A stretch of DNA of 64,000 bases from Eledone cirrhosa (lineage: Eukaryota), in contig OZ024744.1 of assembly GCA_964016885.1 (NCBI GenBank), positions 19,654,001 to 19,718,000 on the forward strand, written 5' to 3'. The translations under genes were made by a program, and so were the position numbers. The notes beneath the pieces are model-generated. The model ran no database searches. It worked only from the letters and a program-made list of their open reading frames with translations, and had not been told where the DNA came from. Positions 1 through 63,185 of this stretch are shown here, piece by piece. Positions within the stretch are counted from its first letter, which is position 1, and each line of letters starts with the position of its first letter.

Positions 1-1460
1 GAGAAATGGAAAAAGAAGAGTGTTGCCATACATGGGAGTCGAACCGACATATTTGGTTATCCAAACCACTGTGCTTCCATTACACCAATGCATATCCCAT
101 CTCCTTCCATTCGAATTAGAAGCTACGAAGTTAGCAAGTGAATGATAAACAAGCAAATTATAAACGTAAACATGTAAGTATGTTTTTGAAACGGTGCACG
201 AGTTTGAAAGTAGAAATTAGAAATTATAAGCTCTCACCGGATTTTAGACTAAAGAAATGTATAGCTTAATAGTGGGGTTTATAACCCTCGGCGAAATGGA
301 AAAAGAAGAGTGTTGCCATACATGGGAGTCGAACCGACATATTTGGTTATCCAAACCACTGTGCTTCCATTACACCAATGCATATCCCATCTCCTTCCAT
401 TCGAATTAGAAGCTATGAACTTAGCAAGTGAATGATAAACGAGCAAATTATAAACGTAAACATGTAAGTATGTTTTTGAAACGGTGTGCTCGTTTGAAAC
501 TAGAAATTAGAAATTATAAGTTTTCACCGTATTTTAGACTAAATAAATTTATAGCTTGATAGTGGGGTTTATAACCCTCGGAGAAATGGAAAAAGATGAG
601 TGTTGCCATACATGGGAGTCGAAGCCACATATTTGGTTATCCAGACCACTGTGCTACAATTACACCAATACACATCCCTTCTCCTTCCATTCGAATTAGA
701 AGCTATGAACTTAGCAAGTGAATGATAAACAAGCAAATTATAAACGTAAACATGTAAGCATGTTTTTGAAACGGTGCACGAGTTTGAAATTAGAAATTAG
801 AAATTATAAGCTCTCACCGGATTTTAGACTAAAGTAATGTATAGCTTTATAGTGGGGTTTATAACCCTAAGAGAAATGGAATAAGATGCGTGTTGCCATA
901 CCTGGGAGTCGAACCCACATCTTTGGTTATCCAGACCACTGTGCTACCATTACTACGAATACACATCCCATCTCCTTCCATTCGAATTAGAAGCTACGAA
1001 GTTAGCAAGTGAATGATAAACAAGCAAATTATAAACGTAAACATGTAAGTATGTTTTTGAAACGGTGCACGAGTTTGAAAGTAGAAATTAGAAATTATAA
1101 GCTCTCACCGGATTTTAGACTAAAGAAATGTATAGCTTAATAGTGGGGTTTATAACCCTCGGAGAAATGGAAAAAGAAGAGTGTTGCCATACATGGGAGT
1201 CGAACCGACATATTTGGTTATCCAAACCACTGTGCTTCCATTACACCAATGCATATCCCATCTCCTTCCATTCGAATTAGAAGCTATGAACTTAGCAAGT
1301 GAATGATAAACGAGCAAATTATAAACGTAAACATGTAAGTATGTTTTTGAAACGGTGTGCTCGTTTGAAACTAGAAATTAGAAATTATAAGGTTTCACCG
1401 TATTTTAGACTAAATAAATTTATAGCTTGATAGTGGGGATTATAACCCTCGGAGAAATGG

Positions 1461-1465
1461 AAAAA
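1461..1465 (-). terminator. Putative Pol III oligo-T terminator (representative)
   Basis: TTTTT lies about 10 nt downstream of the tRNA-like 3' end. The other common monomer families have T4 (CGTTTTC) or T6 (ATTTTTTG) at the same place. Confidence 0.6.
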
Positions 1466-1485
1466 GATGAGTGTTGCCATACATG

Positions 1486-1496
1486 GGAGTCGAACC
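1486..1496 (-). promoter_or_regulatory. Pol III box B (representative; intact in many but not all monomers)
   Basis: GGTTCGACTCC matches GGTTCGANTCC, at tRNA-like spacing from box A. Confidence 0.85.
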
Positions 1497-1527
1497 CACA
1501 TCTTTGGTTATCCAGACCACTGTCCTA

Positions 1528-1538
1528 CCATTAGACCA
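1528..1538 (-). promoter_or_regulatory. Pol III type-2 internal promoter box A (representative; repeated in each monomer)
   Basis: TGGTCTAATGG here and TGGTGTAATGG in most copies fit the consensus TRGYNNARNGG. Confidence 0.75.
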
Positions 1539-4500
1539 ATACACATCCCATCTCCTTCCATTCGAATTAGAAGCTATGAACTTAGCAAGTGAATGATAAA
1601 GAAGCAAATTATAAACGTAAACATGTAAGTATGTTTTTGAAACGGTGCGCTCGTTTAAAATTAGAAATTACAAATTATAAGCTTTCACCGTATTTTAGAA
1701 TAAAGAAATTTATAGCTTGATAGTGGGGTTTATAACCCTCGGAGAAATGGAAAAAGATGAGTGTTGCCACACATGGGAGTCGAACCCACATATTTTGTTA
1801 TCCAGACCACTGTGCTACCATTACACCAATACACATCCCATCTCCTTCCATTCGAATTAGAAGCTATGAACTTAGCAAGTGAATGATAAACAAGCAAATT
1901 ATAAACGTAAACATGTAAGTATCTTTTTGAAATGGTGCGAGAGTTTGAAATTAGAAATTAGAAATTATAAGCTTTCACCGGATTTTAGACTAAAGAAATG
2001 TATAGCTTGATAGTGGGGTTTATAACCCTCGGAGAAATGGCAAAAAATGAGTGTTGCCATACATGGGAGTCGAAGCCACATATTTGGTTATCCAGACCAC
2101 TGTGCTACAATTACACCAATACACATCCCTTCTCCTTCCATTCGAATTAGAAGCTATGAACTTAGCAAGTGAATGATAAACAAGCAAATTATAAACGTAA
2201 ACATGTAAGCATGTTTTTGAAACGGTGCACGAGTTTGAAATTAGAAATTAGAAATGATAAGCTCTCACCGGATTTTAGACTAAAGTAATGTATAGCTTGA
2301 TAGTGGGGTTTATAACCCTAGGAGAAATGGAAAAAGATGCGTGTTGCCATACCTGGGAGTCGAAACCACATCTTTGGTTATCCAGACCACTGTGCTACCA
2401 TTAATACGAATACACATCCCATCTCCTTCCATTCGAATTAGAAGCTACGAAGTTAGCAAGTGAATGATAAACAAGCAAATTATAAACGTAAACATGTAAG
2501 TATGTTTTTGAAACGGTGCACGAGTTTGAAAGTAGAAATTAGAAATTATAAGCTCTCACCGGATTTTAGACTAAAGTAATGTATAGCTTGATAGTGGGGT
2601 TTATAACCCTAGGAGAAATGGATAAAGATGCGTGTTGCCATACCTGGGAGTCGAACCCACATCTTTGGTTATCCAGACCACTGTGCTACCATTACTACGA
2701 ATACACATCCCATCTCCTTCCATTCGAATTAGAAGCTACGAAGTTAGCAAGTGAATGATAAACAAGCAAATTATAAACATAAACATGTAAGTATGTTTTT
2801 GAAACGGTGCACGAGTTTGAAAGTAGAAATTAGAAATTATAAGCTCTCACCGGATTTTAGACTAAAGAAATGTATAGCTTAATAGTGGGGTTTATAACCC
2901 TCGGAGAAATGGAAAAAGAAGAGTGTTGCCATACATGGGAGTCGAACCGACATATTTGGTTATCCAAACCACTGTGCTTCCATTACACCAATGCATATCC
3001 CATCTCCTTCCATTCGAATTAGAAGCTATGAACTTAGCAAGTGAATGATAAACGAGCAAATTATAAACGTAAACATGTAAGTATGTTTTTGAAACGGTGT
3101 GCTCGTTTGAAACTAGAAATTAGAAATTATAAGGTTTCACCGTATTTTAGACTAAATAAATTTATAGCTTGATAGTGGGGTTTATAACCCTAGGAGAAAT
3201 GGAAAAAGATGAGTGTTGCCACACATGGGAGTCGAACCCACATATTTTGTTATCCAGACCACTGTGCTACCATTACACCAATACACATCCCATCTCCTTC
3301 CATTCGAATTAGAAGCTATGAACTTAGCAAGTGAATGATAAACAAGCAAATTATAAACGTAAACATGTAAGTATGTTTTTGAAACGGTGCGCGAGTTTGA
3401 AATTAGAAATAATAAGCTTTCACCGTATTTTACACTAAAGAAATTTATAGCTTGATAGTGGGGTTTATAAGCCTCGGAGAAATGGCAAAAAATGAGTGTT
3501 GCCATACATGGGAGTCGAAGCCACATATTTGGTTATCCAGACCACTGTACTACAATTACGCCAATACACATCCCTTCTCCTTCCATTCGAATTAGAAGCT
3601 ATGAACTTAGCAAGTGAATGATAAACAAGCAAATTATAAACGTAAACATGTAAGTATTTTTTTGAAACGGTGCGCGAGTTTGAAATTAGAAATTAAAAAT
3701 TATAAGCTTTCACCGTATTTTAGACTAAAGAAATTTATAGCTTGATAGTGGGGTTTATAACCCTCGGAGAAATGGCAAAAAATGAGTGTTGCCATACATG
3801 GGAGTCGAAGCCACATATTTGGTTATCCAGACCACTGTGCTACAATTACACCAATACACATCCCTTCTCCTTCCATTCGAATTAGAAGCTATGAACTTAG
3901 CAAGTGAATGATAAACAAGCAAATTATAAACGTAAACATGTAAGCATGTTTTTGAAACGGTGCACGAGTTTGAAATAAGAAATTAGAAATTATAAGCTCT
4001 CACCGGATTTTAGACTAAAGTAATGTATAGCTTGATAGTGGGGTTTATAACCCTAGCAGAAATGGAAAAAGATGCGTGTTGCCATACCTGGGAGTCGAAC
4101 CCACATCTTTGGTTATCCAGACCACTGTGCTACCATTACTACGAATACACATCCCATCTCCTTCCATTCGAATTAGAAGCTACGAAGTTAGCAAGTGAAT
4201 GATAAACAAGCAAATTATAAACGTAAACATGTAAGTATGTTTTTGAAACGGTGTGCTCGTTTGAAACTAGAAATTAGAAATTATAAGGTTTCACCGTATT
4301 TTAGACTAAATAAATTTATAGCTTGATAGTGGGGATTATAACCCTCGGAGAAATGGAAAAAGATGAGTGTTGCCATACATGGGAGTCGAACCCACATCTT
4401 TGGTTATCCAGACCACTGTCCTACCATTAGACCAATACACATCCCATCTCCTTCCATTCGAATTAGAAGCTATGAACTTAGCAAGTGAAAGATAAAGAAG

Positions 4501-61390: not shown

Positions 61391-62544
61391 CCATTTCCTT
61401 CCATTCGAATTAGAAGCTGTGAAATTAGCAAGTGAATGATAAACAAACATATTATAAACGTAAACATGTAAGTATGTTTTTGAAACGGTGCACGATTTTG
61501 AAATTAGAAATGAGAAATTATAAGCTTTCACCGTATTTTAGACTAAAGAAATGTATAGCTTGATAGTGGGGTTTATAACCCTAGGAGAAATGGAAAAAGA
61601 TGAGTGTTGCCATACCTGGGAGTCGAACCCACATCTTTGGTTATCCAGACCACTGTGCTACCATTACACGAATACACATCCCATCTCCTTCCATTCGAAT
61701 TAGAAGCTACGAAGTTAGCAAGTGAATAATAAACAAGCAAATTATAAACGTAAACATGTAAGTATTTTTTTGAAACCATGCGCCAGTTTGAAATTGGAAA
61801 TTAAAAATGATAAGCTTTCACCATATTTTAGACTAAAGAAATTTATAGGTTGATAGTGGTGTTTATAACTCTCGGAGAAATGGAAAAAAATGAGTGTTGC
61901 CATACATGGGAGTCGAACCCACATACTTGGTTATCCAGACCACTGTGCTACCATTACACCAATACACATCCCATCTCCTTCCATTCGAATTAGAAGCTAT
62001 GAACTTAGCAAGTGAATGATAAACAAGCAAATTATAAACGTAAACATGTAAGTATGTCTTTGAAACGGTGCGCGAGTTTGAAATTAGAAATTAGAAATTA
62101 TAAGCCTTCACCGTATTTTACACTAAAGAAGTTTCTAGCCTGATAGTGGGGTTTATATCCCTCGGAGAAATTGAAAACGATGAGTGTTGCCATACATGTG
62201 AGTCGCACCCACACCTTTGGTTATCCAGACCACTGTGCTACCTATTACATCAATACACATTCCATTTCCTTCCATTCGAATTAGAAGCTGTGAAATTAGC
62301 AAGTGAATGATAAACAAACATATTATAAACGTAAACATGTAAGTATGTTTTTGAAACGGTGCACGATTTTGAAATTAGAAAATAGAAATTATAAGCTTTC
62401 ACCGTATTTTAGACTAAAGAAATTTATAGCTTGATAGTGGGGATTATAACCCTTAGGAGAAATGTAAAAAGATGAGTGCTGCCATACATGGGAGTCGAAC
62501 CCACATCTTTGTTTATCCAGACCACTGTCCTACCATTACACCAC

Positions 62545-62702
<158 letters not shown>

Positions 62703-62764
62703 TGAAACAAAATGAAAACGAAATTTCATTTCTCACTCTTAGTATGGCACTTACTTAAATGTAA

Positions 62765-62880
62765 GTATGCATGTATACGTACATACATATGTGTATACAG
62801 ACGTACAGTAGCATGCACATATATATATATATATACATATATATATACATATGCATACAGGTACACATACATATATGCAC
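62765..62880. repeat. Degenerate (TA)/(TACA) low-complexity tract
   Basis: catatatatatatatatacatatatatatacatatgcatac and similar sequence. Confidence 0.8.
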
Positions 62881-63117
62881 GTATCAGTTTAGCGGCGCTA
62901 ACGTCGCTTTGTTCGTTTGTAAACAAACTGAACAGCCTGAATTTATGCCATACGGTGTTAAGGCAACCACGTCACCTTTTTGTTCAACACTGACACAGGA
63001 ACGATGTACTAGTTTCAAGCTTGTTAGCTATCATCAGCACCGTTTACCCATCTGCCAGATAGTTGAACGTTCGAAAGTATATACTTTCCTTATGAAAATT
63101 AACGGCTGAGCAGCCTA

Positions 63118-63185
63118 ATTTGCATATTGAGTGAGTTAAATCGGTCAGGCATACCGAAAACGATAAATTTAACTCACTCAATATG

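Follow-up and report, generated by a model that had tools for sequence, protein, structure and literature searches.

The terminal helix that encloses a tRNA-like cloverleaf at positions 1456–1562 of the DNA studied here, a stretch of 64,000 nucleotides from Eledone cirrhosa (contig OZ024744.1, positions 19,654,001 to 19,718,000; hereafter the window), probably belongs to a mobile element that derives from a tRNA and encodes no protein. The reverse transcriptase that copies it is likely that of a Penelope-like retrotransposon, and the copied RNA is predicted to fold as an unprocessed precursor tRNA (pre-tRNA), whose ends the helix likely shields from trimming. Positions below are those of the window, and the features lie on the minus strand unless stated otherwise.

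An earlier note on this DNA, made from the letters alone, described a stem of 14 pairs, and these pairs are present as described, with leader 1562–1549 facing trailer 1469–1456 through 12 Watson–Crick and 2 G.U pairs. The helix is longer than noted, comprising 17 pairs between a leader strand at 1563–1547, three pairs beyond the original 14, and a trailer strand at 1471–1455. The proposed preference for the minus strand also holds: the fold of 1456–1562 has an energy of −36.2 kcal/mol on the minus strand (z = −2.63; 3 of 200 shuffles as good), compared with −22.7 kcal/mol on the plus strand (z = −1.37; 19 of 200 shuffles as good). The note had held that a stability no better than that of shuffled controls would speak against the stem. 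When leader and trailer are shuffled separately with their purine/pyrimidine composition kept, none of 2,000 shuffles (mean −9.3 kcal/mol) is as good as the array-consensus duplex (−21.3 kcal/mol), and across six consensus sets the duplex measures −17.3 to −22.5 kcal/mol, with 0 to 7 of 2,000 shuffles as good. Leader–trailer duplexes in 37 host-like tRNA genes range from −9.3 to +0.4 kcal/mol, a set from which 10 further rows (−3.7 to −13.9) are excluded as belonging to another repeat. RNAalifold recovers the three cloverleaf arms together with the outer helix. In a single unit, the 14 stem pairs have base-pair probabilities of 0.82–1.0, while in a 711-base multimer the same pairs reach only 0.13–0.15, the leader pairing mostly with the identical trailer of another unit. 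We consider the helix very likely to form in the mobile RNA.

The stem itself thus stands, but not as a single-copy feature: it is present throughout a 216-copy tandem array and a dispersed family. The array, with a 290-bp unit, fills positions 1–62543 of the window. The window is the right part of the whole array, which spans approximately 19,440,624–19,716,543 on OZ024744.1 (contig C28 of genome G000), about 276 kb, or about 950 units by division, its interior having been sampled rather than read whole. One full unit of the mobile element can be placed at 1287–1576; the cut point is arbitrary, as copies are circularly permuted. Of 206 array units, 107 retain the full set of 14 pairs, and of the 25 distinct changes seen across the array 20 disrupt a pair, in line with the note's observation that monomers carry no compensatory changes. 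The right, 5′ end of the array (62543–62699, given without strand) breaks off at tRNA position 8 and abuts a (TA)n run, the usual target of the family; the left end is not canonical, stopping at +17 against other sequence.

The core of the unit, comprising the D, anticodon and T arms at 1483–1538, matches positions 8–63 of the Rfam tRNA model with 37.5 bits. It holds a box A-like sequence in the D arm (1528–1538) and a box B-like sequence with the T loop (1486–1496; A58 at 1490), as judged by the established box consensus. The dispersed copies, first found on six contigs by a search with the D arm carrying a different next base, are numerous: in the 3.0-Gb genome, exact words match 4,753 times (subfamilies B and C), 1,475 times (subfamily A, array included) and 326 times (mostly C), where the third word overlaps the first and reversed-word controls gave 0 matches. 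We derived five consensuses, A (290 bp), B1, B2 and B3 (255–269 bp) and C (287 bp), to which copies are 96.7% (A) and 91.4% (C) identical. The acceptor stem of B and C has 7 pairs and is stacked, across a 3-base bulge on its 3′ side, on the outer helix, which has 18 pairs in B and 6+14 pairs in C. The acceptor 3′ strand (tRNA positions 66–72; 1476–1482) is fully paired in B and C and slipped in the array's subfamily A. The note had suggested that the outer stem may substitute for a broken acceptor stem, which does not agree with the coexistence of both stems in B and C; because the acceptor is slipped only in A, the outer stem did not arise to replace it. Its view of the element as a tRNA mimic without decoding fares better, in that the anticodon varies among subfamilies (GGA, CGA, GGC) and both A, array units included, and B have a pyrimidine at position 37. 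A second, small tandem array of at least a dozen B-type units lies at G000:C1:131.46 Mb (L286–L288), so the family grew into arrays more than once. Two sequencing runs of unknown kind from one sample contain the family, mostly with B-type letters, and opposite-strand joints; they may derive from the source sample and are not counted as support.

The anatomy of the insertions is that of Penelope-like elements. Among 153 scattered insertions chosen by exact word, 93 are two-armed and head-to-head, 60 are in a single orientation, and none is tail-to-tail. In the head-to-head arms the tRNA strand points outward. The ends are staggered, with 69 of the 93 two-armed insertions having one end in a short-arm zone (1368–1386) and one in a long-arm zone (1303–1320); relative to tRNA position 66, shorter arms end approximately 85–120 bases beyond and longer arms approximately 135–182 bases beyond. 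TA or CA repeats abut 191 of 246 3′ ends, and some arms exceed one unit and are not mutual fold-back copies (L029). The same staggered inverted ends are seen at GIY-YIG loci of the same genome (L192, L194, L197, L199, L200), and the GIY-YIG frames in L188 and L197 read outward. Section 6 of PMC8557442 gives as marks of Penelope-like elements partial tandems, an inverted 5′-truncated copy, a 30–40-bp tail at one end, and (TA)n targets. It follows from the insertion geometry that the copied RNA is the tRNA strand, extending at least 100–176 bases past the tRNA, and we consider it highly probable that the element is a Penelope-type passenger. The same insertions bear on an alternative raised in the earlier note, that the stem's two strands are left over from the inverted repeats of a tiny mobile element, here taken as the terminal repeats of a small DNA transposon. 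The strands do form a near-perfect inverted repeat of 14–18 bases, but the 153 insertions end in the two spacer zones and the T loop rather than at the repeats, and the mismatches read as G.U on one strand, so that the probability of this origin is negligible. A weak match (E 2.5–8) to a motif in common with a Penelope family proved to be the antisense of coding sequence and was rejected.

At their other end, most copies of A and B break off at the T loop. Counting one arm per insertion, the 5′ end falls in the 10 bases upstream of tRNA position 66 for 66 of 103 arms of A and B, while the next 9 bases hold 1 of 103; with the same sampling, only 5 of 52 arms of C end at the T loop (Fisher 2.4e-11 versus A/B). 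Most stops lie at tRNA positions 63–65, joined through AT or CATG, and a smaller group lies at 57–60. The T loop reads A58 C59 in A and B and T58 G59 in C, which keeps the same T stem and CATG palindrome. According to a passage of PMC11019747, TRMT6/61A methylates the A of GUUCNA/GUUCRA T loops, and the resulting 1-methyladenosine (m1A) cuts reverse transcription short or causes miscoding. Most simply, the reverse transcriptase would stall at m1A58 and the ends would be trimmed to the nearest microhomology, and we give m1A58 as the cause of this wall about an even chance; a cut in the T loop, or an intact tRNA elbow, would produce a wall too. All three readings need a template folded as a tRNA in the cell, and the A58-dependent wall therefore makes it likely that the copied RNA was folded as an unprocessed tRNA.

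The cut in the T loop deserves separate weighing. In such a case the wall would be an RNA end: a multimer would be cut in each T loop, the ends of the unit-length RNA would be held by the acceptor and terminal helix and sometimes circularised, and the tRNA mimic would take the role of a hammerhead. The wall is sharp near 57–60, and the misreading expected at A58 is missing, as detailed below. Among arms that pass one T loop, 2 of 12 by hand count stop at the next, against 66 of 103 for the first loop, a difference that would suggest templates of two kinds and fits two RNA populations. The 12 arms were chosen by hand from the output of a script that also counted false rows; its p-value, which includes these and a separate small array, is not used. 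The hammerhead core CUGANGA is absent from both strands of the five consensuses, and RtcB circularises retrozyme monomers in vitro (text of PMC7229834). On the other side, C has no wall and yet shows the same permuted multimeric anatomy, and a circle cannot be read from the copies, since the difference within insertions (3.2% and 3.1%) nearly equals that between insertions (4.0%), which is uninformative as to a circular or linear template. We regard T-loop cutting as unlikely. No Rfam ribozyme model matched, and a search by eye and core motif for a hammerhead in any strand order or a hepatitis delta virus (HDV)-like fold ended with a hairpin order like that of a hammerhead and a conserved GUC, but without CUGANGA and GAAA in place.

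The note's inference that the RNA stays unprocessed is upheld in part, on grounds other than its own, by the copies, which hold 100–176 bases beyond the tRNA at the 3′ side, and by the A and B arms that reach tRNA position 1, among which 19 of 25 run on past it and 6 of 25 stop there. Extensive pairing between leader and trailer inhibits RNase P, which prefers a bulge at position −1, according to a passage of PMC9705548 that cites Lee 1997. Because the copied RNAs kept the 3′ spacer, 19 of 25 arms pass position 1, pairing inhibits RNase P, and position −1 is paired in B and C, the helix would hold the mimic in its precursor form, with promoter and tail on one molecule. By our analysis such a shielding role for the helix stands at roughly even odds. 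More tentatively, a tRNA mimic held as precursor by its long terminal helix might either have its T loop cut and its ends joined by tRNA enzymes of the host, giving a circle of one unit for a Penelope reverse transcriptase to copy, as a ribozyme-free counterpart of retrozymes, or be marked by m1A58 as a host brake on transposition that C escaped by changing A58; we hold this extended proposal possible, though doubtful.

The sequence of the unit is compatible with RNA polymerase III (Pol III) transcription in more than the boxes themselves. A T5 run at 1461–1465, within the trailer strand, is a candidate Pol III terminator; the consensus units of A and B have no other run of at least four T in the sense orientation. 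The A and B spacers contain no T4 run, against 1.3–3.3 expected, an absence that fits Pol III transcribing through the whole unit; the T5 run of the trailer would then be a terminator that must leak. An external promoter of the U6 type, as Y RNAs have, was not found: when the five consensus units were compared with the 100 bases that precede each of five U6 loci, no alignment exceeded z 2.5.

Vault and Y RNAs have paired ends and a T run, and vault RNAs carry internal boxes as well. The earlier note had likened the enclosed cloverleaf to them, and boxes A and B, paired ends and the T5 run are all in place for an array of genes that would each encode a separate vault- or Y-like Pol III RNA of approximately 100 bases. 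The Rfam Vault and Y RNA models remain unmatched, with E up to 10 in 1200–2100 and at gathering score in the window, and the Vault model instead matches 11 loci on contig C3. Furthermore, the array drifts, with the pair-breaking changes given above, an RNA ending in the T run forms only the inner half of the helix, and the spacer helices are conserved as well. As a full account of the locus, the stand-alone RNA of approximately 100 nt also fails on the mobile unit, which is the whole monomer of 255–290 bases. We consider a vault- or Y-like gene cluster very unlikely.

Conservation extends beyond the terminal helix. The spacer contains four more helices, among them hairpins H2 (1434–1450) and H3 (1406–1428), present in all five subfamily consensuses, and helix H4 (1352–1401; strands 1401–1396 and 1357–1352), the loop of which contains the short-arm end zone. 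Between the five consensuses, 14 substitutions fall in paired columns, of which 11 keep a standard pair and 3 break it (p = 0.005 against a chance rate of 41%), and one of the 11 is two-sided, changing U-A to C-G in H4 of B2 and C. At the level of copies, changes in the terminal helix keep the pair in 11 of 55 cases (Fisher p = 8e-5 versus 11 of 14 between consensuses), both counts having been made by hand and the copy-level control consisting of the array, dispersed A and C. Subfamily C, in addition, has a two-sided insertion in the terminal helix; the counts of both sides changed that RNAalifold gives for the outer helix are not used, since it aligns C out of register. Editing of A to I as a source of the G.U pairs was rejected, as A>G changes show no excess over T>C in four subfamilies (17/3466 versus 30/4127; 31/2139 versus 27/2550; 31/2233 versus 28/2864; 72/3549 versus 93/4231).

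A number of observations weigh against the reading of a shielded pre-tRNA copied by a Penelope enzyme. Most stops fall 5–7 bases short of A58, so that end trimming must be assumed. Read-through of m1A often leaves misreading, but arms that pass the T loop carry none at A58, with 3 changes in 81 compared with 25 in 648 at other A. The 6 of 25 arms that stop at position 1 could reflect RNase P cuts, although all 6 joints show microhomology. The conservation figures lean toward pairing, because the helices were drawn from the same consensuses that were later counted, and the copy-level control leaves out the rows of B1 and B3 (10 keep, 23 break) given the mixed nature of class B3. Counted by itself, the terminal helix shows 3 pair-keeping changes against 1 break (p = 0.19) and no two-sided substitution, and that break is found in the B2 consensus and in 9 of 20 dispersed A copies. 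Only two of the four related spacers avoid T4 significantly (P 0.004 and 0.01, with 0.11 and 0.17 for the others). The T5 run should stop Pol III, and C spread despite a broken, non-canonical box B and two more T runs. Finally, the search for a partner enzyme was negative, a profile of 91 spacers having no significant match in 50 GIY-YIG loci sampled from 10,596 candidates; the placeable frames in these loci all had a C-end nuclease, and Naiads are probably not among the 50.

Some of these points would suit a helix without any role, left as a historical accident by an ancestral head-to-head insertion that placed the reverse complement of the trailer before the tRNA. The family constantly makes inverted arms, and the inverted trailer reads almost exactly as the leader; the lack of two-sided helix substitutions and the break fixed in B2 point the same way. 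Nevertheless, the helix persists in all subfamilies, its non-Watson–Crick pairs are G.U on the tRNA strand (four columns versus one C.A), and C gained bases on both strands together. An inverted origin is, moreover, compatible with later selection, and an inverted arm of the family itself may be where the helix started. That it is an accident and nothing else seems quite unlikely to us.

We prefer a cycle in which boxes A and B would drive transcription by Pol III, and read-through of the single T5 run, or a circle, would yield an RNA longer than one unit; the RNA of approximately 100 nt that ends at T5 may be a by-product. The RNA of B and C is predicted to fold into a cloverleaf with a 7-pair acceptor, a 3-base bulge and a helix of 18–20 pairs, in which the paired position −1 would make it a poor substrate for RNase P. 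The enzyme would prime from both sides of a (TA)n cut at two AU-rich spacer sites and copy toward the tRNA, where m1A58 would arrest it, and the ends would be trimmed to nearby AT or CATG microhomology where the two arms join. One such insertion would later have expanded at the DNA level into the array, the units of which now drift.

Several known systems share parts of this design. Metazoan non-LTR (LTR, long terminal repeat) retrozymes, described as non-autonomous partners of Penelope-like elements in parts of PMC7229834 and bioRxiv 10.64898/2026.07.22.740005, are likewise AT-rich, protein-free units of approximately 300 bases that occur as monomers, short tandems and large arrays, with a structured RNA and a Penelope-like link, but the present element has, in place of a hammerhead core, a tRNA-derived core with boxes A and B. 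Partial tandems, an inverted 5′-truncated arm, a tail at one end and (TA)n targets are common to endonuclease-containing (EN+) Penelope-like elements of the Naiad and Neptune types, as PMC8557442 presents them, and to non-autonomous Chlamys elements such as MRC1, and Naiads lack canonical hammerheads and are listed for Octopus; in contrast, our element has no reading frame, its tail is approximately 40–70 bases, and it has no 3′ sequence in common with any of the 50 GIY-YIG loci. With tRNA-derived short interspersed nuclear elements (SINEs) and SINE-derived satellites, as treated in a portion of PMC10702118, it has in common a tRNA-derived internal promoter, thousands of copies, subfamilies and occasional growth into satellites. 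SINEs have their tRNA part fixed at the 5′ end, a single orientation and one 3′ end, but here no such fixed head exists, the copies occur permuted, in tandem and with two arms that end in two zones, and the satellite repeats the whole unit; SINEs are set apart by these insertion features, the sequences of three octopus SINEs from 1994 (Ohshima and Okada) lying outside the comparison.

Helenus, Ajax and Cassandra, which passages of PMC10886601 describe as non-autonomous LTR elements derived from small-RNA genes, similarly carry a Pol III gene fragment in the repeated end of a non-autonomous, non-SINE retroelement, but they have LTR structure, whereas the present element has Penelope-type ends. 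Eukaryotic pre-tRNAs with leader–trailer pairing (as outlined in PMC9705548) have the acceptor stem, the bulge and a paired leader and trailer before a U run; the element differs from them in having 18–20 pairs rather than a few, a paired position −1 and no stable anticodon. Compared with vault and Y RNAs, it has a full cloverleaf inside and is mobile and present in thousands of copies. Vault-like loci of the genome lie elsewhere: a cluster at G000:C3:221,183,987–221,251,257 (L363–L368) holds 11 above-cut-off hits of the Rfam Vault model, candidate vault RNA genes with paired ends and a T run.

As to ancestry, the D arm and the 4-base variable loop resemble host tRNA-Gln, among the Gln, Thr and Ile genes compared, but descent from the tRNA-Gln genes with matching leader and trailer letters would require insertions or deletions on either side, and its score does not exceed that of another tRNA-like repeat. 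In a cluster of tRNA-Gln genes (L084–L112, G000:C1:168.21–168.28 Mb), several have a 5-pair leader–trailer match with the same letters as the inner helix of the element, and two variants (L087, L091) have the anticodon CUA, an amber-reading look-alike that ARAGORN calls tRNA-Pyl.

How Penelope-like elements make tandem and inverted insertions is named as an open problem in a section of PMC8557442, and the family described here offers thousands of short, simple insertions with fixed landmarks, namely a pair of zones for priming, a palindrome at which the arms join, and a stop governed by the sequence of the T loop. The element would be the Penelope counterpart of SINEs, the passengers of LINEs (long interspersed nuclear elements), as well as of Cassandra and Helenus, the passengers of LTR elements. 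No description of a tRNA-derived class of Penelope passengers, or of truncation tied to m1A58, was found in the literature searched, with repeat databases, subscription journals and supplements outside its scope. With its contrast between A58 and T58, the family allows one to ask directly whether modification of a tRNA restrains a mobile element, and the break-off of most copies at one tRNA loop probably preserves the way in which the tRNA machinery of the cell deals with, and may slow, the RNA of a parasite. If the circle or the m1A58 brake were true, the genome would keep a base-resolution record of the action of tRNA enzymes on a transposition intermediate. In practical terms, tRNA scans of such genomes over-count, as 31 array units within the window alone are called tRNA-Ser.

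Within the array, a D-stem swap of G-C to C-G in 30 of 206 units represents a single event, and unit variants recur in irregular higher-order patterns. Spacings of 283 bp (22 of 216) and 291 bp (17 of 216) occur, and the most diverged units are the last ones, near 62,000. Beyond the (TA)n, a 472-bp repeat at 62701–63172 (core 62971–63055, minus strand) is 98.9% like L017:42–515 and is tandem in L193 and L247. It carries the hammerhead motifs CUGAUGA (63037–63031), GAAAC and GUC and is probably a retrozyme family, although Rfam does not list it at gathering score. Approximately 100 kb to the left of the array is a simple-sequence satellite of at least 220 kb (G000:C28:19.10–19.34 Mb). A second, unrelated dispersed repeat (L349, L351–L359; approximately 1180–1930 in tRNA orientation) starts at a fixed left end folding into a hairpin (flipped in L359) and has, 300 bases inside, a near-perfect internal tRNA-like gene with varying anticodons that tops the Rfam tRNA search. 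Approximately 30 U6 small nuclear RNA genes lie in tandem with 1.8-kb spacing at G000:C19:31.78–31.84 Mb (L267–L276).

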